Virus record (IMG/VR): IMGVR_UViG_3300038393_000909
Coordinates: 1 to 64,000 of that record
Source: a virus
Reading direction: 5' to 3' (one strand)
DNA length: 64,000 nt
Shown here: one piece after another, positions 2,715 to 40,620 of the stretch
Numbering within the stretch: position 1 is the stretch's first letter
How the letters are laid out: each line of letters opens with the position of its first letter
Program-made: the position numbers and the translations under genes
The notes under the pieces: generated by a model
Databases searched by the model: none
What the model was told of the DNA's origin: nothing
Seen by the model: the letters and a program-made list of their open reading frames with translations, nothing else

Positions 2715-3107
2715 ATGTCCGCTTTCATCGTGAGCAACAAGCACATCAACGCTATCGTGTCATGGTCTGCGGCTAATAACTATGGGCGCCGACCGTCCCT
2801 TGAAGAATGCCATGATGCCGGTCGCATGCTGATGGCTGAGAACTGCAAGTCGGTTGGATACCGATACGCGCACATCCCTGGCATGGTTCAGGAATGCGCC
2901 GACGCGCTAGAGGGTTACGCCTTCAAGCCCGATACGACGAAGCGCAGCGCAGTCGAGATCATCAAGGCGTGCGAGTGTCTGGCCTACCAGAGCAGCGAGC
3001 ACGATGAGTGGGAGAGCAGCGAGGCTAAGCGGCTCCTCGATACGGTGAAGGATCGCGCTATCGACAAGCTCCCCGGCTATGACGCCGCACCGTGGGGCAT
3101 CAACTAA
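2715..3107 (+). CDS. conserved-looking phage hypothetical protein (MSAFIVS... YQSSEH..W)
   Basis: RBS and coding-like composition. Confidence 0.65.
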   Translation: MSAFIVSNKHINAIVSWSAANNYGRRPSLEECHDAGRMLMAENCKSVGYRYAHIPGMVQECADALEGYAFKPDTTKRSAVEIIKACECLAYQSSEHDEWESSEAKRLLDTVKDRAIDKLPGYDAAPWGIN

Positions 3108-23277: not shown

Positions 23278-23776
23278 GGCAGTTATGGGCGCACCGGTCC
23301 TTACGGGAAGGCGGCGCTACCGGATTCAGAAGCGGGTGTTTCGCCATCCGCTCCTGGTCCTGCAGCTCGAGGTCCAGGGCCTGCGGTGCCGCTACGCAGG
23401 CTTCGTCGACTGTGAGTACGAGCGCTGGTGGATCGATGCGGGTCCAGAGCACATCACCATCACCGGGGAATCGAAGTGACACCGCAGTCGGAGATCATCG
23501 GGTTCGAGCGGAAGATCGAGCTGATGCGGGAGCTGGGAGATCTGAGTGTGGAGCCGGTTGCCCCATTCCACTGGCTGGTAAAACACGTCTACGTGATCAT
23601 CGACCATCCCGACGGCTCGAGTACCGTGCCACAGGGGCAGGATACGAATCCGTATGGGGCGATCGAGAACCATTTCGCGATCCTCACGCAGCCCGGTGTG
23701 CATGTCATGACAGGGAAGCCGGACCGCTTGGTCGAGTGGGACCGGATCGGATGGCGAGACATCATCTAGATGCCAA

Positions 23777-23804
23777 GCGCAAGATAATGCGGCTTAGCTT
23801 GCGT
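23777..23804. other. 11-6-11 inverted repeat, dif/Xer-core-like site
   Basis: GCGCAAGATAA-TGCGGC-TTAGCTTGCGT shortly after a stop codon. Confidence 0.35.
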
Positions 23805-23829
23805 TCGGAATGACCCCGAGGAGGATGAG

Positions 23830-24096
23830 ATGAGCGAGTTATCCGAGATCCCCGACAACCCGCCCGGCTACGGCGACACCGTAGGACGCTGCATCTCGTT
23901 TGACCTTGGCAAGGTGCTCGCGGATGCGATGCGCTTCTGTGACCTAGCTGCCGGCGAGGGCCTGATGCTCAGGCATGATGCGGGCTTCTATCTGGACGCT
24001 GCCGACATCTGCGTGGAGTTCGCCAAGGCGTCGGGTGTTGAGCTTGGCTCACCGGAATACGAGGCGGCCGTCGCGGCGCTTGCGCGCAGCGCATAG
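23830..24096 (+). CDS. hypothetical protein
   Basis: GAGGAGG RBS. Confidence 0.6.
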   Translation: MSELSEIPDNPPGYGDTVGRCISFDLGKVLADAMRFCDLAAGEGLMLRHDAGFYLDAADICVEFAKASGVELGSPEYEAAVAALARSA

Positions 24097-24104
24097 GCCC
24101 GGCC

Positions 24105-24132
24105 TGTCGGCAAAACGGTCCTTATGCCGACA
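24105..24132. repeat. 28-bp res-site-I-like palindrome A1
   Basis: TGTCGGCAAAAC-GGTC-CTTATGCCGACA. Confidence 0.7.
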
Positions 24133-24153
24133 CAGAGGGGCATCGAACTTTTT

Positions 24154-24207
24154 TAGGGCAAATGGCCCTCATGCCCGTTGACAGGGTAGGGCAGATGGCC
24201 CTATAAC
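24154..24207 (+). promoter_or_regulatory. sigma70 promoter overlapped by two TAGGGCA(A/G)ATGGCCCT operators
   Basis: TTGACA 24178-24183, N18, TATAAC 24202-24207; operators at 24154-24169 and 24187-24203. Confidence 0.8.
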
Positions 24208-24251
24208 AGGTTCATCAGCAAGGGCGAATGAGCCCGGCGATGGAGAGCAAG

Positions 24252-24479
24252 ATGACCAAGCGCACTTTCCGGGTCGAGCAGGCTTTCGAATACGGGATCG
24301 GCAACGGCGTCAACGGCGCGGGCCGTCGCCCGAAGGTCACCGGCTTCTACGTCATTGAGAACGAGACCGGCCGGAAGGTGATCGGCGTCACCGCTTCCAG
24401 CATGAAGCCCGCCGCCGTTGATTGGGCTCGCAACAAGGCCGAGCAGCACCTCGACCATATCAGCCGGATGTACGCCTAA
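24252..24479 (+). CDS. hypothetical protein
   Basis: First gene after the promoter, GGAG RBS. Confidence 0.6.
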   Translation: MTKRTFRVEQAFEYGIGNGVNGAGRRPKVTGFYVIENETGRKVIGVTASSMKPAAVDWARNKAEQHLDHISRMYA

Positions 24480-24534
24480 CCACGCAACCGGGCGGGCTCA
24501 GACCCGCCCAACCTCTCATTCGAGGAGATGCGAA

Positions 24535-24732
24535 ATGCCGATGGATCGGTGGGGCTACTACGACGAGCAGGAGGCGCAGGCGCTCGACGCGCGAAACAAG
24601 CGCCTCGTCGAGCGGCTGAAAGCCGGCCTGCCAGACGACACGGCCGAACGGCTGGAACTCGCCAGACAGCGGGCCGCCGGAAACGAGTTCTACGCCCAGG
24701 CGCAAGCGGACAGTGAGATCCCGCTTGATTGA
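24535..24732 (+). CDS. hypothetical protein
   Basis: GAGGAG RBS. Confidence 0.55.
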   Translation: MPMDRWGYYDEQEAQALDARNKRLVERLKAGLPDDTAERLELARQRAAGNEFYAQAQADSEIPLD

Positions 24733-24907
24733 TGATCAATGGCACGTCGAAGTTGAGCAACTCCGCGCCGCGCACCGGGCCGCCGAGGCGCTGATCTATT
24801 CCCTGTTGGGCGACGAAGACGACGAGGACGAGCAAGCCAAGAAATTGCTCGCTTGGTCTAACGCCGCAGCAGCGCTCGACCACTCTACCACCGAGGAGAA
24901 TTAGGCG

Positions 24908-25102
24908 ATGGGCCAGATTGATCGAACCAAGCTCGCGAAGCTCGATGGGCTGATCCAAGACCTGCTCGACGAGATCGAGGACGCGGGCGAAGACGATGTG
25001 GCGGCCGAAGCGCTGTTCGAGCCGCTGAGCCAAGCAAGCGCGGCCCTGCATGCGGTCCTGACAACCTACGCAGTTCTGACGATGCCGCCCGCCAATGGCT
25101 GA
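24908..25102 (+). CDS. hypothetical protein
   Basis: GAGGAG RBS. Confidence 0.55.
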   Translation: MGQIDRTKLAKLDGLIQDLLDEIEDAGEDDVAAEALFEPLSQASAALHAVLTTYAVLTMPPANG

Positions 25103-25316
25103 CCGGCGCATCTACAGCCTCGACGAGCTTGAGGCCATGGCCGCACCTGACGGCACGCGCGGCGACTACCGCAGCGCCTCCGCCTGCCGAGCCCATCGCG
25201 ACGGTGACTGCTTCTGGGCGAAGTGCCCGCAGATTGCCGACGACGAGCCGAACGCTACTGGGCGCCACTGCCCTTTGGACGAGCCGCCGTTCCGGGCGGG
25301 GGACGAGGACGAATGA
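25095..25316 (+). CDS. small Cys/His-rich protein
   Basis: CRAHRDGDCFWAKCPQ..GRHCPLD. Confidence 0.6.
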   Translation: MADRRIYSLDELEAMAAPDGTRGDYRSASACRAHRDGDCFWAKCPQIADDEPNATGRHCPLDEPPFRAGDEDE

Positions 25317-25555
25317 CCGCCGCCCAGCTCCGCGACGCCCTCAAGTCGCTCGGGCTCTCGCAATCAGCGGGAGCCCGCCTCCTCGGCGTGGACGGCAGGA
25401 CCATGCGCCGCTGGTGCGCCGAGCCCGGCCCGAGCGCCCGCGAGGTGCCGCCGCCCGTCGCCCGGTTCCTCTGGCTCATGCAGGCCGCCGGGATCGGCCC
25501 CGCCGAGGTGGAGCGGCTTCTGGAGCCGTTCCTTCGCGAAACCGAAACCCCGTGA
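25313..25555 (+). CDS. XRE-like HTH regulator
   Basis: MTAAQLRDALKSLGLSQSAGARLLGVDGRTMRRW. Confidence 0.8.
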   Translation: MTAAQLRDALKSLGLSQSAGARLLGVDGRTMRRWCAEPGPSAREVPPPVARFLWLMQAAGIGPAEVERLLEPFLRETETP

Positions 25556-25575
25556 AAACGGCCGAATACCCGACA
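25548..25575. repeat. 28-bp res-site-I-like palindrome A2
   Basis: CCCCGTGAAAAC-GGCC-GAATACCCGACA, overlapping the HTH stop codon. Confidence 0.65.
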
Positions 25576-25585
25576 TCAGGAGAAG

Positions 25586-25927
25586 GTGATGAGTGAGCAC
25601 ACGCCGGGGCCTTGGTGCAACATGATTGGCAACGCCATCGGGGCCTATGGCAGCGTCGATACCTATGGCGGCGCAGTGCTGATCCCCGTCGCGCGCGTCG
25701 AGCAGACCGGAGAACAACAGGATAGCGACGGGCGCGTCTTCACGCTCGGCGGCTCCAGTGAGGCAAACGCCCGGTTGATCGCTGCCGCGCCCGATCTGCT
25801 CGCGGCGCTCAAATCCGCCCGCGCTCAGCTTGAGAGCTACGAGGAAGCTCGCAGCGGCGAAAGCTACAACGACACGCAGATCAATGCCGCCATCGCCAAG
25901 GCCGAGGGCAGCGACCACAACATCTAG
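25586..25927 (+). CDS. HTPGPW...ANARLIAAAP family protein (cassette between A2 and A3)
   Basis: Motif pair; RBS directly after site A2. Confidence 0.75.
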   Translation: MMSEHTPGPWCNMIGNAIGAYGSVDTYGGAVLIPVARVEQTGEQQDSDGRVFTLGGSSEANARLIAAAPDLLAALKSARAQLESYEEARSGESYNDTQINAAIAKAEGSDHNI

Positions 25928-25929
25928 TG

Positions 25930-25957
25930 TGTCGGGATACTGGTCGTTTTCACGACA
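25930..25957. repeat. 28-bp res-site-I-like palindrome A3
   Basis: TGTCGGGATACT-GGTC-GTTTTCACGACA, 2 bp after a stop codon. Confidence 0.7.
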
Positions 25958-25977
25958 TCGAAAATGGAGGCCAAGCT

Positions 25978-26268
25978 ATGAGCGATCATAATTATGTCGT
26001 TGGACGTGTCGTGTTCGGCAGCGTCTCGGACAGTCTCTATCGCGAGGCACTAAAGCAGCGTGACAACGAAACGGCACGGGCCAGCGAGAGCGTGGCTGAA
26101 GTGGCTCGCTTGCGCGCCGAGAACGCCCGGTTGCGCGAGGCGCTAGAGGAGGTCCGCGATTGGCATCCGATGTTCAATGGCGGAGTAAAGCGCGACACAG
26201 CGGAAGATCTCGTCGGCTATATCAAGTACCTCCAGGGTGTCGCGTACAACGCGCTAGTAAAACCCTGA
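25978..26268 (+). CDS. hypothetical protein (cassette between A3 and A4)
   Basis: GGAGG RBS after A3. Confidence 0.65.
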   Translation: MSDHNYVVGRVVFGSVSDSLYREALKQRDNETARASESVAEVARLRAENARLREALEEVRDWHPMFNGGVKRDTAEDLVGYIKYLQGVAYNALVKP

Positions 26269-26269
26269 G

Positions 26270-26297
26270 CGTCGGAAAACTGGCCGTTTTCCCGACA
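26270..26297. repeat. 28-bp res-site-I-like palindrome A4 (extra half-sites at 26342 and 26370)
   Basis: CGTCGGAAAACT-GGCC-GTTTTCCCGACA, 1 bp after a stop codon. Confidence 0.72.
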
Positions 26298-26385
26298 TCG
26301 CGCCGGGTCGGTCCCGGAGCCCATCAAAACAGCCCCGATCCTGTCGGGAAAACGTGTCAGCCTATCAAATGTCGGAGAAACGGTA

Positions 26386-26622
26386 ATGGCGAGCAATCCC
26401 GACGACATCTTCGGACCTTGGGATGGGCCGCCCGATCTGGTGAGCGCCATTGCAGCCGAGGTCATGGGCTTGAAGTGGACCCGTGCCGACACCGAGGACG
26501 AACACTGCGACCGCTACGGCGAGGTGCAGGAGGTCGTTGCCGCGACCATCGCCCGGATGCTGGCCGAGCACCCGACGCACGATTTCCTAGCGGCCTTCTC
26601 CCCCGCCCCGGCCGGGGAGTGA
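26386..26622 (+). CDS. hypothetical protein
   Basis: Stop codon abuts empty site S0. Confidence 0.6.
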   Translation: MASNPDDIFGPWDGPPDLVSAIAAEVMGLKWTRADTEDEHCDRYGEVQEVVAATIARMLAEHPTHDFLAAFSPAPAGE

Positions 26623-26647
26623 GACGGAGACGGTATCCCCCATACCA
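26623..26647. other. empty att-like core site S0
   Basis: GACGGA-gacggta-TCCCCCATACCA. Confidence 0.75.
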
Positions 26648-26664
26648 GCAACAGGAGAGCGAAA

Positions 26665-26829
26665 ATGGAACAGCACAAGATCATCGAAGCGGCAGACACG
26701 CCCGGCAGCATTGGCCCCGGCGACATCGCCCTCACGATCCAATGGCCAGACGGCACGGAGACCGTCGAGCACGTCTCAGAGCAGGCCGCACGGGTGCTCG
26801 GGTACACCTATCCCGACGAGGACGAGTGA
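26665..26829 (+). CDS. 54-aa hypothetical cassette gene X1
   Basis: AGGAG RBS; MEQHKIIEAADTPGSIGPGDIALTIQWPDG... Confidence 0.65.
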   Translation: MEQHKIIEAADTPGSIGPGDIALTIQWPDGTETVEHVSEQAARVLGYTYPDEDE

Positions 26830-26835
26830 GACGGA

Positions 26836-27278
26836 TGGGATTGCGGACATTTCGGCAAGTATTGCTGAGGAGCATTAAATGAAAGCGGCGCACCTTGAAT
26901 ATCTGAAACGTATTGCGACCGATTTAGACCAGATTGGCGCCACAGGCAGAGCTAACCAATTACGGTATATCATCGGTCAACTGTCCGCCCAATCCGCCGC
27001 GCATGATAGGGCCGATGTTGGGGCCGGATGGGTGCTCGTTCCAGCGGAACCGATGCCGGAAATGGTTGCCGCATGGTGGCGCGTAAAGAACACCGGCTCG
27101 ACGGAGCCGGGCGAGACCGGCGAGGATCGCAGCGATTGCGCCGCATACCGGGCGATGGTCGCCGCCGCACCTCGACCGCCGGCAAAAGTTGGGGCCTGAG
27201 TTGGGGCCGGGCCGTTATGGGTTATCCCATAACGAAATTACTTCAACGGCTTAGCGAAGATTTCCGATTTCTGGGATT
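26836..27278 (+). mobile_element. mini integrative element E1 (duplicated 7-mer TGGGATT)
   Basis: 7-mer at 26836-26842 and 27272-27278; arm pairs at 27005/27017 and 27188/27200; IHF-like box at 27239-27256. Confidence 0.75.
26879..27199 (+). CDS. E1 cargo ORF (WVLVPAEP..EM..YRAMVAAAP domain)
   Basis: GAGGAG RBS; reads through the arm repeats. Confidence 0.65.
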   Translation: MKAAHLEYLKRIATDLDQIGATGRANQLRYIIGQLSAQSAAHDRADVGAGWVLVPAEPMPEMVAAWWRVKNTGSTEPGETGEDRSDCAAYRAMVAAAPRPPAKVGA

Positions 27279-27302
27279 TCCCCCATACCAAGAGAGGAAG
27301 CT

Positions 27303-27590
27303 ATGACGGCCTTAGAATACCTCAATGAGGCGGCCACGCCCGGCCAATGGTTCGCCGGGCATTGGGGCGGCCAGTGCCATAAGAAGCACAGCCACTCGGG
27401 CCGAGGTGGTGCCGATCCGTGTGTCTATGAACCTGTTCGGTATGACGGCCCCGAGAACGGCATAGCGACAGAGGATGGCAGATCTGTCCTTGCGAGTAGC
27501 TATGACGGGTTCGAGATGCTGCCTGCCAATGTCGAGTTCGTCGTCGCGCTCGTGAATGCTTTCCGATCCGGCAAGCTCGTGGAGCGGTAG
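27303..27590 (+). CDS. hypothetical cassette gene X2 (ATPGQW..NVEFVVALVNA)
   Basis: GAGG RBS after CCCCCATACCA. Confidence 0.7.
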   Translation: MTALEYLNEAATPGQWFAGHWGGQCHKKHSHSGRGGADPCVYEPVRYDGPENGIATEDGRSVLASSYDGFEMLPANVEFVVALVNAFRSGKLVER

Positions 27591-27603
27591 GCAATTCGAC
27601 GGA

Positions 27604-28079
27604 AGCGATCACGGGCAATTCGGCAAGCATTACACGGGAGTGACAAGTTATGGCGGCTGACCTCGCAGAACTCCGAAGGATGTGCGGAGAATTGGACAAC
27701 CGCGGATACAGTGCGGAAGCGCAAGAGTTTCGCGAGGCCATCGCCGAAATCTCCGCCCTACGCGCCGCGCAGGTTGGGGCCGGTGATGGGGCCGGATGGA
27801 AACCGATTGAGACAGCGCCGAAGTGTGGCAAGCGCATCATCGGATGGGTGCCAGGGTGGGAATACGCCCGCTGCTACGCATTCGTCACAGCCGGCGGCGA
27901 ACCGTTCGGGTGGCGCAACGAAGCCGGTCGCGTGATGGAACACGAACAGCCGACCCATTGGCTGCCGTGGCCCGAACCGCCGCCCGCTGTTGGGGCCGAT
28001 GTTGGGACCGGCACTGATCTACCCGCGTCTGCCTCCTGATACTTCAAGGGCTTAGCGGACATTTCAGGAAGTAGCGATC
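27604..28079 (+). mobile_element. mini integrative element E2 (duplicated 7-mer AGCGATC)
   Basis: 7-mer at 27604-27610 and 28073-28079; arm pairs at 27773/27785 and 27989/28001; IHF-like box at 28040-28057. Confidence 0.75.
27650..28039 (+). CDS. E2 cargo ORF with DUF551-like domain
   Basis: WKPIETAPK...PTHWLPWPEPP. Confidence 0.7.
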   Translation: MAADLAELRRMCGELDNRGYSAEAQEFREAIAEISALRAAQVGAGDGAGWKPIETAPKCGKRIIGWVPGWEYARCYAFVTAGGEPFGWRNEAGRVMEHEQPTHWLPWPEPPPAVGADVGTGTDLPASAS

Positions 28080-28103
28080 CCCCCCATACCAAGCGAGGAA
28101 GCG

Positions 28104-28250
28104 ATGAGCGACGAAACGAAGGCCAAGCTGATCTCTGAGCTTGCCCAACTTCTAGAGGCTCTGCGGACAGGCGAGCTGGACCATTTCGATGTCGGAGACT
28201 GGCTTGAGGATAACGGCAGCCGCGTGCTCGCCGCGCTCAAGGCCGAATAG
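28104..28250 (+). CDS. 48-aa hypothetical cassette gene X3
   Basis: GAGG RBS; MSDETKAKLISELAQLLEALRTGELDHFDVGDWLEDNG... Confidence 0.65.
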   Translation: MSDETKAKLISELAQLLEALRTGELDHFDVGDWLEDNGSRVLAALKAE

Positions 28251-28259
28251 TTCGACGGA

Positions 28260-28681
28260 CGGGGCCACGGAAATTTTGGTAAGTAATCAGCGATGGTGGT
28301 AAATTATGATGGTGTCGCGGAATACATTGGTAATGATTGCGCAAGTTGCGGAGGAGCAAAATCGCAGCAGATTAAACACACCTGTTCGGGTTGAGGCGGG
28401 CGAACTGTCCGCCAATCACGAGGGAGGGGTTGGGGTGAATGTTGGGATGGAAAAGAGCATCGAAACCCGCGCAGCGGATGCCCTGGATGCGATCTACGAG
28501 GAGACGATGAGCAAGCACGTCAACATCGCGAGTTGCAGGGATGCACGTCGCGCTATCATCGTCCAAGCTATTCGCGATGCGCTGGCAGATGTTGGGGTAA
28601 ATGTTGGGGTAAGTGCCCCGCAAGCATAGCCCGGAGCCTGATACTTCAGGCACTTAGCGAGCACTTTGCGCGGACGGGGCC
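28260..28681 (+). mobile_element. mini integrative element E3 (duplicated 7-mer CGGGGCC)
   Basis: 7-mer at 28260-28266 and 28675-28681; arm pairs at 28429/28441 and 28591/28603; IHF-like box at 28642-28659. Confidence 0.75.
28306..28629 (+). CDS. E3 cargo ORF
   Basis: Arm repeats are read as VGVNVG twice. Confidence 0.55.
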   Translation: MMVSRNTLVMIAQVAEEQNRSRLNTPVRVEAGELSANHEGGVGVNVGMEKSIETRAADALDAIYEETMSKHVNIASCRDARRAIIVQAIRDALADVGVNVGVSAPQA

Positions 28682-28704
28682 TCCGAAATACTAGGGAGAG
28701 AGCA

Positions 28705-28920
28705 ATGCAGTGGACCGTATGGGACGAAGACGACGTTGACGGCGATCCGCGGTGTGACCCGCTCGCCCGCGCCTGCAAAGAATGGTTCATCGGCATCTGG
28801 CCCGCCGACAAAGACGAGCCGCTAGTTCGGATCTGTGTCGGCGGCCGGGATGGCGAACACACCGCCCATCACCTCGCGGACAGCTTGAACGACGCGAAGG
28901 CATTCCCGCCGGCAGTATGA
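28705..28920 (+). CDS. hypothetical cassette gene X4
   Basis: GGGAG RBS; stop codon overlaps empty site S4. Confidence 0.65.
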   Translation: MQWTVWDEDDVDGDPRCDPLARACKEWFIGIWPADKDEPLVRICVGGRDGEHTAHHLADSLNDAKAFPPAV

Positions 28921-28939
28921 CGGACAAGGGTTCCGCCAT
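28917..28939. other. empty att-like core site S4
   Basis: ATGACGGA-caagggt-TCCGCCAT (7/8 inverted repeat around a 7-bp spacer). Confidence 0.7.
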
Positions 28940-29000
28940 CAGGTGGATGGTGCCATGAATAGGTGATCCGCGGCTTGACGCTGCGGAACTCCCGTGGCAT

Positions 29001-29020
29001 CGTTTGCATTAATTCGAACG
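29001..29020 (+). promoter_or_regulatory. consensus copy of the genome-wide 20-bp motif CGTTTGCATTAATTCGAACG
   Basis: Exact reverse complement at 47641-47660; about 15 degenerate copies elsewhere. Confidence 0.8.
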
Positions 29021-29281
29021 AGGCGATCATGTCGGAAGCGGACGAGTTCACACGCGTCGCACTGGAGGTGATCGAGCTGTTCCCATCAACACCGGACGAG
29101 CTGCGTGAGTGGTTCATGCTCGAGGTCGGGACGCATCGGAAGCCAGGGCGTGCCCAGCTCGAGTATGGGCTGAAACCGATTCAGGTCTACCGACTTGAAC
29201 AGGCATGCCGCCGCAAGGTCGAAGAGTATGACGCATGGTCCGCCATGCTCGACCGCGCATTCGCATAGGAGAAAGCCAGCC

Positions 29282-29737
29282 ATGAGTAGCGAGTGCCCTC
29301 CCCTGATGCTGAGCGTGATGCCCAACGGCCTGCTCAAGCCGCTCAACCGCTTCGACCAGGAGCACATCTCCAGCCGTTACGCCGTCGGCTCCCGCGTTCG
29401 CGCCAAGATCACCCAGCCGCGCTCTGTTCCCCGCCACAGGCTGTACTGGTCCGTGCTCGCCGAGGTGGTGACCGCCACGGGCGACAGGTGGTGCGACGTC
29501 GAGGACCTGCACGAGTCGGTCAAGATCCGGCTTCGCATGCTGCGCGGTGTCTCGATGCTCGGTGGTGGCGTTCGCTACGTCACCCAGTCAATCAGCTTCG
29601 AATCGATGGACGAGGGGCAGTTCAAGACCTTCTTCGACAAGGCCATGGCCGTGATCACCGAGGACACCGGCATCGACACGCAGGCGATCCTCAAGGAACT
29701 AACGTCTAAGAGTGAGACCCGTGAAGCAGTCGCATAA
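29282..29737 (+). CDS. DUF1367/NinB-like recombination-associated protein
   Basis: PRSVPRHRLYW, SISFESMDEGQFKTFF. Confidence 0.7.
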   Translation: MSSECPPLMLSVMPNGLLKPLNRFDQEHISSRYAVGSRVRAKITQPRSVPRHRLYWSVLAEVVTATGDRWCDVEDLHESVKIRLRMLRGVSMLGGGVRYVTQSISFESMDEGQFKTFFDKAMAVITEDTGIDTQAILKELTSKSETREAVA

Positions 29738-30042
29738 GAACCACGCGCAGCGCAACCCAATGCACTTCAAGGCTGCCATGATACGGGCGGCCTTCGTCGT
29801 CAGGACAGACGCGCGCATGATCGGCCTGCCCAAGGTCCGTGAGCCGGTGATCGAGGCTGCGGCCCTGAGGGCGATCGGCATCGACGAGGCGACCATCGAG
29901 GCGCGCCACTACAACAAGCTCTACAAGGATAGCCAGGACGTGGTGTTCGAGGTGTTCGAGCGCGCGATCTCCGAGGCACGCGAGGAAATTTCTGCGTTGC
30001 CGCCTATCCGTTTCGCTTGACGGTCCATTCGAATTAATTGTA

Positions 30043-30540
30043 ATGAATGAGCAGCCACAGAGCAGCGCACCGCCAGTCGGGTTTCGGAAAGCGATCCCCA
30101 CCAAGGTAAAGCTGCAGGTCGTTTTGCGTCAGGGTGGCATCTGCAAATCATGCGGACAACGGATCGAAGAGGTTGAGAACTGTCGATTCGACCATGTCCC
30201 TGCGATTCAGCTTAGAGCCTGGGATCCTATCGCAAACGATACCACGCCGAGCGTAAACAACCCGGATTTTATCAACGCTCTTCACGAAGATTGCCACGCG
30301 ATCAAGACAACTGGCCGCCGCGGTGAGAGCCGTCTGAGTGCCCGAGACGGAGACGTCGCCGCCATCGCCAAGGTGCGGCGCCTGACCCGGAAACAGGAAG
30401 CCTACCGTCAGCGCCTGCTGGCCAAGGACGATCCTGACGCCGAGGAACCAGAGACCAAGGCGAAGCCGAAGTACCGGTGGCCGAAGAGAAGTTTCAGTTC
30501 GAACCGCAAGAAGGCCGAGGCGCGGCCTGAGGAAGGATAG
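30043..30540 (+). CDS. HNH endonuclease
   Basis: RQGGICKSCG, FDHVP, NNPDFINALHEDCHAIKT. Confidence 0.8.
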   Translation: MNEQPQSSAPPVGFRKAIPTKVKLQVVLRQGGICKSCGQRIEEVENCRFDHVPAIQLRAWDPIANDTTPSVNNPDFINALHEDCHAIKTTGRRGESRLSARDGDVAAIAKVRRLTRKQEAYRQRLLAKDDPDAEEPETKAKPKYRWPKRSFSSNRKKAEARPEEG

Positions 30541-38948: not shown

Positions 38949-39302
38949 ATGTCTGCGGCCATGACGATTACTGACGATACCCCGCTGCGTCTGGCGGACG
39001 CGGTTGTAATTGCATTTCCCCATGGAGGCATGACTGAGGCCGGGCTGCGCAGGGAGGCCAAGCGCGGGCGCCTTGAAATCGAACGGATCGCCGGTAAGGA
39101 CTTCGTCACCCTTGCCGCGATCCGAGAGATGAGAACCCGATGCCACGTCCAGCGAAGGGCGCAAGACTCTGGCTCAGGCCCGAGCGCCTCGACGATCAGG
39201 GACGCGTGCGTGAGCGATCGACATGGATCATCCGGGATGGATCAAAGACGGTCAGCACGGGATGCGCTCCTGAAGCGCGTGCGGACGCTGAAAAGTGCCT
39301 GA
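38949..39302 (+). CDS. excisionase (Xis-like)
   Basis: PLRLADAV..AFPHGGMTEAGLRREAKRGRLEIERIAGKDF; overlaps the 5' end of the integrase. Confidence 0.75.
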   Translation: MSAAMTITDDTPLRLADAVVIAFPHGGMTEAGLRREAKRGRLEIERIAGKDFVTLAAIREMRTRCHVQRRAQDSGSGPSASTIRDACVSDRHGSSGMDQRRSARDALLKRVRTLKSA

Positions 39303-40441
39303 GCGCCTACATTGAGCAGAAGTACCGCCCGGCGCGCAGGCGGCGTGAGATCGAGGAGATCGGGATCGCTGACGTCCTGGCGATCTACCTCGAGGATACC
39401 CGCGAATCCCAGGCCAACAAGCGCGCCTTCGACGGGCGCATCGAGCGCCTCGCTGAATGGTGGGGCGAGAAGACGCTGTCCGAGGTCACGGGCGAGACGT
39501 GCCGGGCCTATGTCGAGCACCGCGCATCCGCCGAGCGACAAGCGGTCAGTGGCAAGCGCGGAGCCGTCGGGAGAAAGGGCACCAGCGGCGGAGCGCGCCG
39601 CGACCTTGAGGACCTGCGCGCGGCGATCAATCATCACCACGGACAAGGACTCCACCGCGAGGCCATCCGCGTGATCCTGCCCGAGAAGGGGGCGGCCCGC
39701 GATCGATGGCTGACCCGGTCCGAGGCCGCGCGCCTCGTCTGGTTCTGCTGGCGCTACCGCGATACCCAGACCTGGAACAAGGGCACGCGCGCCGGCAAGA
39801 GCGTCGTGACCAACAAGCGGTCGCTGCGCCATATCGCGCGCTTCATCCTGATCGGGCTCTATACCGGGACGCGGGCCGGGGCCATCGCTTCAGCCTCGCC
39901 CTATAAGAGCGCCGGTCACTCTTGGGTCGATCTCGAGAGCGGGCGGTTCTACCGGCTCGCCGAGGGCAAGAAGGCGACGAACAAGCGACAGCCGACCGCG
40001 CGCATCCCATCGCGCCTGCTCGCCCATCTCAGGCGATGGTCCAGAGCGACGCAGGGCAAGGACGGGCCGCCCGTCATGCGGACCCATTTCGTCGAATGGA
40101 GGGGCAAGCCGGTCGGGTCGGTGAAGGTCGCTTTCGGCCGGGCCGTGCGCGCGGTCGGCCTGGGCGATGACGTGTCGCCCCACACCCTGCGGCACACCGC
40201 CGCGACGTGGCTCATGCAGCGCGGCGTCGACAAATACGAGGCGGCCGGATTCCTCGGCATGTCGCTCAAGATGATCGACGAGGTCTACGGCCACCACCAT
40301 CCCGATTTCCAGGACAGCATCGACGCGGCGTTCGCGACCCGCAAGCCGGCGAATCAGGGTCCGCACCGCTTCGCCGGACGGCACGTTTCTGTTGGCATAA
40401 CTGTGGGCGTAGAGGGTGACGCCGCCAAGGATATGGTGTAA
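39140..40441 (+). CDS. int: tyrosine integrase
   Basis: YTGTRAGAI (R), KR, SPHTLRHTAATW, VYGHH (Y). Confidence 0.93.
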   Translation: MPRPAKGARLWLRPERLDDQGRVRERSTWIIRDGSKTVSTGCAPEARADAEKCLSAYIEQKYRPARRRREIEEIGIADVLAIYLEDTRESQANKRAFDGRIERLAEWWGEKTLSEVTGETCRAYVEHRASAERQAVSGKRGAVGRKGTSGGARRDLEDLRAAINHHHGQGLHREAIRVILPEKGAARDRWLTRSEAARLVWFCWRYRDTQTWNKGTRAGKSVVTNKRSLRHIARFILIGLYTGTRAGAIASASPYKSAGHSWVDLESGRFYRLAEGKKATNKRQPTARIPSRLLAHLRRWSRATQGKDGPPVMRTHFVEWRGKPVGSVKVAFGRAVRAVGLGDDVSPHTLRHTAATWLMQRGVDKYEAAGFLGMSLKMIDEVYGHHHPDFQDSIDAAFATRKPANQGPHRFAGRHVSVGITVGVEGDAAKDMV

Positions 40442-40620
40442 GTACTTGAGAATGTTGGTGGGCCCGGCAGGACTCGAACCTGCAACCAGACCGTTATGAG
40501 CGAGACGGTGATACGTTAAGTATTTGAAATCATTCGATCGATTGCGTGCAATCAATGCCGATTGGCGCGTTTTGTTCTCATTCTCAGCGATCGTTTCTGT
40601 GGGATAACTGTGGGCGTAGA
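40384..40620. other. attP: arm repeats - IHF-like box - tRNA core - IHF-like box - arm repeats
   Basis: CGTTTCTGT(TGGC/GGG)ATAACTGTGGGCGTAGA at 40384-40413 and 40592-40620; TAAGTACTTGAG at 40439 and TAAGTATTTGAAAT at 40517. Confidence 0.85.
40456..40502 (-). other. 3' half of a CAT-anticodon tRNA (tRNA-Ile2/Met-like) = attP core
   Basis: Reverse complement CGCTCATAACGGTCTGGTTGCAGGTTCGAGTCCTGCCGGGCCCACCA; no 5' half present. Confidence 0.85.

Follow-up and report, generated by a model that had tools for sequence, protein, structure and literature searches.

An ordered row of dyad sites carrying small candidate integrative elements in the genomes of soil and rhizosphere phages

The stretch of DNA analysed here (the window, 64,000 nucleotides in full) is the first 64 kb of a phage contig of 98,228 bp, IMG/VR record IMGVR_UViG_3300038393_000909, which has ~61% G+C and is rated 81% complete. 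It contains an array in which small plus-strand genes, here called slot genes, are separated by short recurring sites, some uninterrupted and three occupied by inserts (elements E1 to E3), each of which carries one open reading frame (ORF) and is bounded by two copies of a 7-mer. The components of the array are as follows.

26268–26385, plus strand: array leader, non-coding, with repeated TGTCGGGAAAA / TTTTCCCGACA motifs; 77–85% identity in five relatives (L051, L093, L236, L237, L264)
26386–26622, plus strand: slot gene A, 78 amino acids (aa); an ORF of no known family
26623–26647, plus strand: empty site 1, reading GACGGA, GACGGTA, TCCCCCATACCA
26665–26829, plus strand: slot gene B, 54 aa; the corresponding slot in six relatives holds unrelated genes
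26836–27278, plus strand: element E1, TGGGATT copies at 26836–42 and 27272–78, ORF 26879–27199; repeat pairs at ~27005–27025 and ~27188–27208, conserved box at 27240–27256
27303–27590, plus strand: slot gene C, 95 aa
27604–28079, plus strand: element E2, AGCGATC copies at 27604–10 and 28073–79, ORF 27650–28039; repeat pairs at 27773–27793 and 27989–28009, conserved box at 28041–28057
28104–28250, plus strand: slot gene D, 48 aa
28260–28681, plus strand: element E3, CGGGGCC copies at 28260–66 and 28675–81, ORF 28306–28629; repeat pairs at 28429–28447 and 28591–28609, conserved box at 28643–28659
28705–28920, plus strand: slot gene E, 71 aa
28919–28939, plus strand: empty site 5, reading GACGGA, CAAGGGT, TCCGCCAT; a CAAGGGT site is also found in L059

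The original prediction for this locus had placed the motif GACGGA at 26623, 26830, 27598, 28254 and 28919, and all five positions are correct, each lying 0–7 nucleotides (nt) after the stop codon of a small plus-strand gene. It had also described the two uninterrupted sites and the three recurring 7-mers, and these are found exactly where it had them. The second copies directly precede TCCCCCATACCA (TGGGATT), CCCCCCATACCA (AGCGATC) and TCCGAAATACTA (CGGGGCC), which are followed by a ribosome-binding site (RBS) and the next gene, the repeat units measuring 436, 469 and 415 bp, respectively. As a left half-site, GACGGA is better written (AT)GRCGGA, which in the relatives forms an 8-7-8 dyad with TCCGCCAT. 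This dyad is degenerate in the window, empty site 5 plus its two preceding bases (ATGACGGA) forming it with one mismatch, and reads ATGGCGGA-N7-TCCGCCAT in the relatives, with 8/8 pairs in L264 and L274. In simulated windows the 7-mer after GACGGA recurs 300–700 nt downstream 1.4 times per window by chance, and we estimate that this expectation falls to ~3e-4 per window once a right half-site (.CC...ATAC) must directly follow the recurring 7-mer; three such cases are observed. With all three at homologous positions, a chance origin is negligible. Homology among E1–E3 extends over both ends and the first ~40 ORF codons, no further element copies being present in the 98-kb genome, and the slot genes of the window are unrelated to each other.

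No BLAST match to 25500–30500 was obtained among 50,697 GenBank phages, slot gene A has no Pfam or PHROG match, and Rfam returned nothing credible on 23500–30000, which therefore holds no intron, tRNA or known RNA. A consensus scan of 25800–29400 revealed no sigma-70-like promoter and no plus-strand terminator. The leader is kept across all relatives although the genes on both sides differ, and is probably the promoter/operator of the array.

Relatives were collected by pattern scans and BLAST filtering, as short sequence patterns gave mostly chance matches and the genuine relatives were selected by BLAST. Six related IMG/VR contigs (L059, genome G001; L051, G002; L264, G003; L236, G004; L237/L274, G005; and L093) make up, with the window genome (G000), a set of seven phages. 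The six are otherwise dissimilar, ranging from 34 to 123 kb and having differing recombination genes; all have the leader and the array in common. In the seven phages the sites consist of a stop codon, (AT)GRCGGA, a 7-mer, TCCSCCAT(ACCA) and an RBS, and the 7-mers follow one universal order: GACGGTA, TGGGATT, AGCGATC, CGGGGCC, CAGGGGA, CCGGGGC, CAAGGGT, GGGGGCA. Every phage has a subset of these in that order, the sole exception being an extra TGGGATT site before GACGGTA in G001. The slot genes, on the other hand, are almost all unrelated between phages; only an HNH_3 endonuclease gene and a coiled-coil gene recur, in different slots. The HNH_3 homing-endonuclease genes (L236 8297–8937 and L274 1229–1834) are 82% identical and occupy different slots of two arrays, the L236 copy being apparently split by a frameshift. 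The coiled-coil gene, which ends in ...ENARLQAELETARHTI..HIN.P, is found in three slots (L051 6709–6882, minus strand; L327 ~2830–3030; L059 7444–7722, minus strand). In L264 (3050–3240, minus strand) the slot that precedes the empty CGGGGCC site is occupied by non-coding DNA (~190 bp), in which the two halves of a ~30-bp inverted repeat (GCGCAGATCGAACCGGACCAATGCGG ... CCGCATTGGTCCGGTTCGATCTGCGG) are separated by a spacer of ~120 bp.

Beyond these contigs, a profile search of 5.8 billion proteins yielded 11 members of the element protein family, all from JGI samples. A 21-base element-specific pattern gave chance matches only in 241 million metagenome records and 185,579 species genomes, and two further viral scans revealed no new arrays. 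Contig L235, with three pattern matches, was considered as a relative and rejected, its repeat being unrelated: in this viral contig (12900–13660, minus strand) three ~50-bp G+C-rich palindromic repeats (GGCGCCTCCGGGCGCCCC...GGCCCTCCGGGCCGCC) lie between small genes. Array pieces matching window positions 26000–29600 are present on contigs of three other soil/rhizosphere studies, with many joints at conserved blocks, so that the distribution of this phage group and of its mosaic elements goes beyond the seven contigs.

The original prediction had proposed a comparison of empty and filled sites in related phages as a check. Such a polymorphism is found, with base-exact boundaries, at the only three site types that are ever filled.

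TGGGATT: filled in the window, L093, G003 and G004; G001 has an element left end but no right end, and a hybrid element of G005 starts here; empty at the one extra G001 site upstream of GACGGTA, which has an element-type left arm (GTTCGATTTC), and at none with a generic left arm
AGCGATC: filled in the window and G003; empty in G004, L093 and G002
CGGGGCC: filled in the window, G002 and G005; empty in G003 and L093

The empty G003 site, GACGGA-CGGGGCC-TCCGAAATACC, equals the window left flank, one 7-mer and the window right flank. Of the 11 complete elements of the seven phages, nine carry the same 7-mer on the left and on the right. The remaining two (TGGGATT...AGCAATC in G005 and AGCGATC...CGGGGCC in G001) both pair addresses that are adjacent in the array order, and are best read as recombinants of neighbouring elements with loss of the intervening slot gene. 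In a twelfth element, that of G001 (L059), the right end has been lost and an in-frame fusion joins the N-terminal module to the coiled-coil slot gene. Among the 7-mers of the four main site types, 36 copies contain a single substitution, and the 14 nt on either side are 41–88% pairwise identical within junction classes. Such near-invariant 7-mers amid divergent flanks speak for selection on the cores rather than for neutral target-site duplications, which would be expected to decay together with the sequence around them. Mosaic relatives are also present in assembled contigs of four soil/rhizosphere runs; no cleanly element-free form or circle junction was found in them, these contigs being uninformative about excision.

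The geometry of the elements, as read in the 11 complete copies, is kept to the base. A first pair of GTTGGGG repeats lies at +169/+181 from the left 7-mer (+168/+180 in one element) and a second at -84/-72 from the right 7-mer, while a conserved box, ACTTCAAGGGCTTAGCG, with a TCAA-N4-TTA core resembling a site for integration host factor (IHF), lies at a fixed place, -32; protein binding to this box is putative. The +169 distance is kept though the N-terminal modules are only 30–67% identical: the start codon offset is 31, 43 or 46 and the N-terminal coding length compensates. Between the repeat pairs the segment varies from ~120 to 315 bp, and in E1 the second copy of pair 2 falls beyond the stop codon. 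On the plus strand of the genome GTTGGGG occurs 10 times, with 8 occurrences inside the three inserts, and is otherwise not enriched. To the right of the 7-mer, the positions xCxGxCAT are common to the site arm TCCGCCAT and to RCGGACAT, the left end of the elements. All elements have a single orientation and the cores are non-palindromic. Pairing of the element ends as RNA (AAGTAT / ATACTT) was considered and rejected, as no covariation is seen over three copies. The layout resembling a phage attachment site (attP) that had been proposed for the inserts, namely a 7-bp core, paired arm-like repeats, an IHF-like box and one ORF, is thus borne out in all 11 elements; the enzyme and current mobility that it implied are not.

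The element ORFs encode 92–166 aa in four parts: an N-terminal hairpin, a linker, a variable middle domain and a second linker, the first repeat pair encoding a VGxxVG linker. A structure model of the E2 protein is confident only for the N-terminal two-helix hairpin (residues 5–45) and gives no hint of an enzyme; for the middle domain a weak DUF551 match was obtained in E2, and PHROGs of unknown function were matched in E1 and E2. Nothing suggests that the cargo is an enzyme. The breakpoints of element mosaics fall at the GTTGGGG pairs. For instance, the L059 element is 96% identical to E2 up to pair 1 (left 195 bp) and matches again from pair 2. In the L051 element the left part resembles E1, the linkers and the right end resemble E3, and the middle domain is its own.

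The sites are related to a tRNA gene. A scan for ATGGCGGAGACGGTAG retrieved the arrays together with reverse-complement tRNA-Ser 3' ends in three unrelated phages, and the left arm and 7-mer of site 1 are, in the relatives, the reverse complement of a tRNA-Ser 3' end, with 14 nt identical, or 15 with the preceding T (GGCGGAGACGGTAG). In G003, G005 and G001 the likeness extends into the T-loop. From the identity in this alignment, the arms TGGCGGA/TCCGCCA correspond to the tRNA-Ser 3' terminus (TCC, G, CCA) in two orientations. The type-1 block GTTCGATTTCTGGGATTTCCGCCA is formatted exactly as a tRNA 3' end (T-loop 7, stem 5, acceptor 7, G, CCA), and has no tRNA match in plasmid or phage collections. 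Tyrosine integrases classically target tRNA 3' ends and stem/7-nt-loop sites. The rhizobiophage relatives of the integrase encoded in the window integrate into tRNA genes (PMC11476347).

These observations lead us to a mechanism for which we see about an even chance: the inserts would be mini integrative elements reduced to attachment (att) sequences, inserted in Campbell fashion by a tyrosine-type recombinase acting in trans. Each insert would be a miniature non-autonomous integrative element made of an att region and one cargo gene. In its putative circular form, an attP-like region would include RCGGACATTTCGGCAAGTA as a conserved left arm, the 7-bp core and, in the right arm, the IHF-like box at -32, and the paired GTTGGGG repeats would flank this core on both sides at fixed distances; in E1 the circle junction (right end, 7-mer, left end) would read ...CGATTTC-TGGGATT-GCGGACATTT. 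Integration would proceed by a single Campbell-type crossover in the 7-bp core of one dyad site (arm, 7 bp, arm) of the ordered row, the site arms being tRNA-Ser 3'-end sequences in both orientations. As each site has its own 7-mer, the sites would act as separate addresses and an inserted element would be flanked by two address copies. One crossover between circle and site in a shared core explains the duplicated core, the clean empty sites, the one orientation, the confinement to three addresses and the selection on the cores, and a tyrosine recombinase is suggested by the geometry of the dyads, by arms that resemble tRNA and by the likeness of the layout to an attP. The enzyme would be a site-specific one provided in trans, its source being the host, a resident island or another phage. 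Once elements are inserted, their interiors may change by module exchange at the GTTGGGG pairs, and neighbouring elements may recombine. Whereas the feature is real and conserved, the anatomy and the relatives supporting the structural claims of the original prediction, the circle intermediate, the enzyme class and current activity are what we infer.

The genomic context bears on the source of such an enzyme. The window codes for a helicase, a primase, an RNase T-like exonuclease, a YqaJ exonuclease, a class II ribonucleotide reductase and ThyX, and at 39140–40441 for a tyrosine integrase with 36–39% identity to integrases of Rhizobium, Sinorhizobium and Ochrobactrum phages (e.g. 16-3, phiLM21). 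The metagenome runs containing this DNA or relatives are from soil and rhizosphere, and a host within the Hyphomicrobiales is probable. The phage's own attP, in the region 40384–40620, comes immediately behind the stop codon of the integrase gene: positions 40456–40500 correspond, in reverse complement, to a tRNA(CAT) between its anticodon loop and the CCA end, both included. This tRNA-Met fragment is placed between two ~29-bp direct repeats (CGTTTCTGTKGG.ATAACTGTGGGCGTAGA) at 40384–40413 and ~40592–40620, which are likely to be arm-type integrase sites.

Several observations weigh against insertion by a recombinase acting in trans. No recombinase gene is present in the elements, in the array or beside it. 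Integrases of family PF00589 are encoded in four of the six genomes tested (G000, G001, G002, G005; the L093 contig was outside this test) and are absent from G003 and G004, which are rated 100% complete and carry three elements, and in which only a small serine recombinase is found. The attP arm repeats readable in the window, G001 and G005 differ from one another and from GTTGGGG, and the window attP is a tRNA-Met anticodon-loop site with different arms. The GTTGGGG pairs were considered as arm sites of the phage integrase and rejected, those of the window attP (two CTGTKGG, 12-bp spacing) being similar and those of G001 and G005 not. Also, the 5–8 nt to the left of the right-hand 7-mer vary by site type (CCGATTTC, CAGGAAGT, GCGGA); only GCGGA resembles the left arm of the sites, so that there is no evident common core-binding site on that side. 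The HNH gene and the coiled-coil gene sit between different 7-mers in different phages, and a strict rule of identical overlaps therefore does not explain them. Finally, the elements are divergent and limited to a handful of contigs. The lack of a common recombinase, the differing attP arms and the element ends that vary by site type imply either an enzyme from elsewhere or insertions that are old; indeed, the data are also compatible with three old insertions, no present mobility and subsequent modular recombination. Of the cassettes of lambda/P4-type att architecture originally predicted, the structure and the empty and filled sites of relatives are thus supported, with no cognate recombinase found, and the notion that they are loaded into landing pads may overstate recent activity.

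The main rival explanation, possible but rather unlikely, is that the array is shuffled like the gene cassettes of T4-type phages that are bounded by promoter plus terminator stem-loops (PeSLs), the dyads being regulatory or RNA-processing motifs (e.g. a hairpin, then ACCA and the RBS) and the elements paralogous early genes with conserved 5' and 3' untranslated regions. The driver would be short-homology recombination by the general machinery of phage or host, possibly HNH-stimulated, and may include mini-circles re-inserting at a short identical core. Repeated intergenic motifs do border hypervariable single-gene slots here, as in the T4-type hyperplastic regions with mini-circles (PMC2839356), and this accounts well for the turnover of slots whose genes are unrelated between phages. 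Also in its favour are the failure to find a dedicated recombinase common to all phages, the HNH_3 genes in two arrays and the many mosaic joints at conserved blocks in soil/rhizosphere contigs. The cores at some junctions are also longer: 14–16 nt, imperfect (CGAT..C+TGGGATT), in L093, 10–11 nt in L236, and CGGACGGGGCC (11 nt). However, general recombination needs more than 7 bp, yet in the window and in L264 the identity extends over only 7 bp; since the arms are identical at all sites, exchange by homology should preserve neither the element-specific 7-mer pairs nor the universal order, and the 7-mers are better conserved than the arms. The motifs are not accompanied by a detected sigma-70-like promoter or terminator, the GACGGA arms are never compensated on the opposite side, which argues against a selected RNA hairpin, and a YqaJ exonuclease is encoded in only two of the six genomes.

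Transposition of the kind known from miniature inverted-repeat transposable elements (MITEs) or mycobacteriophage mobile elements (MPMEs), with a transposase in trans making 7-bp staggered cuts at a preferred dyad, would turn the 7-mers into target-site duplications. Staggered cleavage and fill-in is the simplest way to make three distinct duplicated 7-mers, the size of ~0.45 kb, the single small ORF and the phage location recall the MPMEs (439 bp; PMC3029335), and there is a weak subterminal inverted similarity (left CGGCAAGTA, right TACTTCAA..G). Against this, the 7-mers have been kept far more strictly than the sequence around them, as neutral duplications would not be, elements are confined to three of the eight site types, and no insertion departs from the common orientation. 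In addition, the 5–8 nt at the right end vary by site type, true terminal inverted repeats are absent, rve-type transposases are absent from five genomes, and no copies lie outside arrays in the phage genome, the 241 million metagenome records or the 185,579 species genomes; we consider this origin improbable. Least credible of all is that nothing moved and that a two-gene unit was tandemly duplicated and then diverged, the 7-mers being remnants of the duplication. The unit of element and slot gene does occur three times at a similar period, but nine perfect 7-mer pairs, of three kinds, would not have survived independent drift, the relatives have clean empty sites and the slot genes are mutually unrelated.

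Derivatives of lambda/P4-type elements (cis-mobilizable elements, mobilizable genomic islands) have no integrase and use a borrowed one. Like these derivatives, the elements described here have no recombinase of their own, and with lambda/P4-type elements they share the dyad core, the 7-bp crossover region duplicated at both junctions, paired repeats as putative arm sites at fixed distance, the IHF-like box and a target resembling a tRNA 3' end. Unlike these, they are 10–100 times smaller (~0.45 kb), reside in phage genomes and not in chromosomes, occur as several copies in a tandem row of sites with differing 7-mers and have their arm repeats within the cargo reading frame. The array also recalls an integron in that promoterless single-gene cassettes follow each other in one direction along a row of recombination sites and their content is hypervariable between relatives. 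The integron resemblance raised in the original prediction does not, however, extend to class membership: there is no intI with an adjacent attI beside the array, the window integrase lying 10 kb off beside its own tRNA-Met attP, there are no imperfect hairpins of the attC type and no Rfam match, and many distinct docking sites in fixed order, with a duplicated 7-bp core, take the place of one attI.

Among phage-borne systems, the T4-type PeSL cassettes (PMC2839356, PMC4122927) are alike in that the ORFan genes of a hyperplastic early region lie between copies of an intergenic motif, with modular shuffling and plausible circles. PeSLs recombine by homology (PMC2839356, PMC4122927), whereas neither a promoter nor a terminator is detected at the present sites, each of which has an invariant 7-mer of its own, and the 7-mers of the inserts are duplicated. 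MPME1 and MPME2 (PMC3029335) are likewise of ~440 bp with one small ORF, restricted to phage genomes and polymorphic for presence and absence between related phages. They have 11-bp inverted repeats, varied insertion sites, including within genes, and an unexplained extra 6 bp at one end (PMC3029335); the present elements are without terminal inverted repeats and are found only in three addressed dyad sites. The pdif/Xer modules of Acinetobacter plasmids (PMC7399989) are also gene modules bounded by short dyad sites, on which a host recombinase encoded elsewhere acts. Their Xer sites are 28-bp, 11-6-11, dif-like and of alternating orientation (PMC7399989), in contrast to the 8-7-8, tRNA-Ser-like sites described here, which have one orientation and no dif-like sequence.

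In the literature searched, we found no description of such a system of elements and array. We tentatively propose, at clearly less than even odds, that it may be a new phage-borne cassette platform, in which ordered, mutually incompatible docking sites derived from tRNA-Ser 3' ends, with invariant 7-bp cores, would capture att-only mini-circles of ~0.45 kb through a hijacked recombinase encoded by neither the element nor, in some phages, the phage; each element would be a two-level cassette, with a middle domain swappable in frame between the arm repeats. Under a more modest reading too, two anatomical facts on rhizosphere phages are new: invariant 7-mers stand in a fixed order between unrelated genes, and the arms originate from tRNA-Ser. 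Should a site-specific recombinase move the inserts, no integrative elements smaller than these, which consist of an att region and one gene only, would be known, and they would also be the first to form an addressed tandem array within phage genomes. Such an array would then constitute a natural set of mutually incompatible sites, maybe useful for cassette exchange, and would provide a concrete mechanism for the gain and exchange of ORFans in phage early regions.

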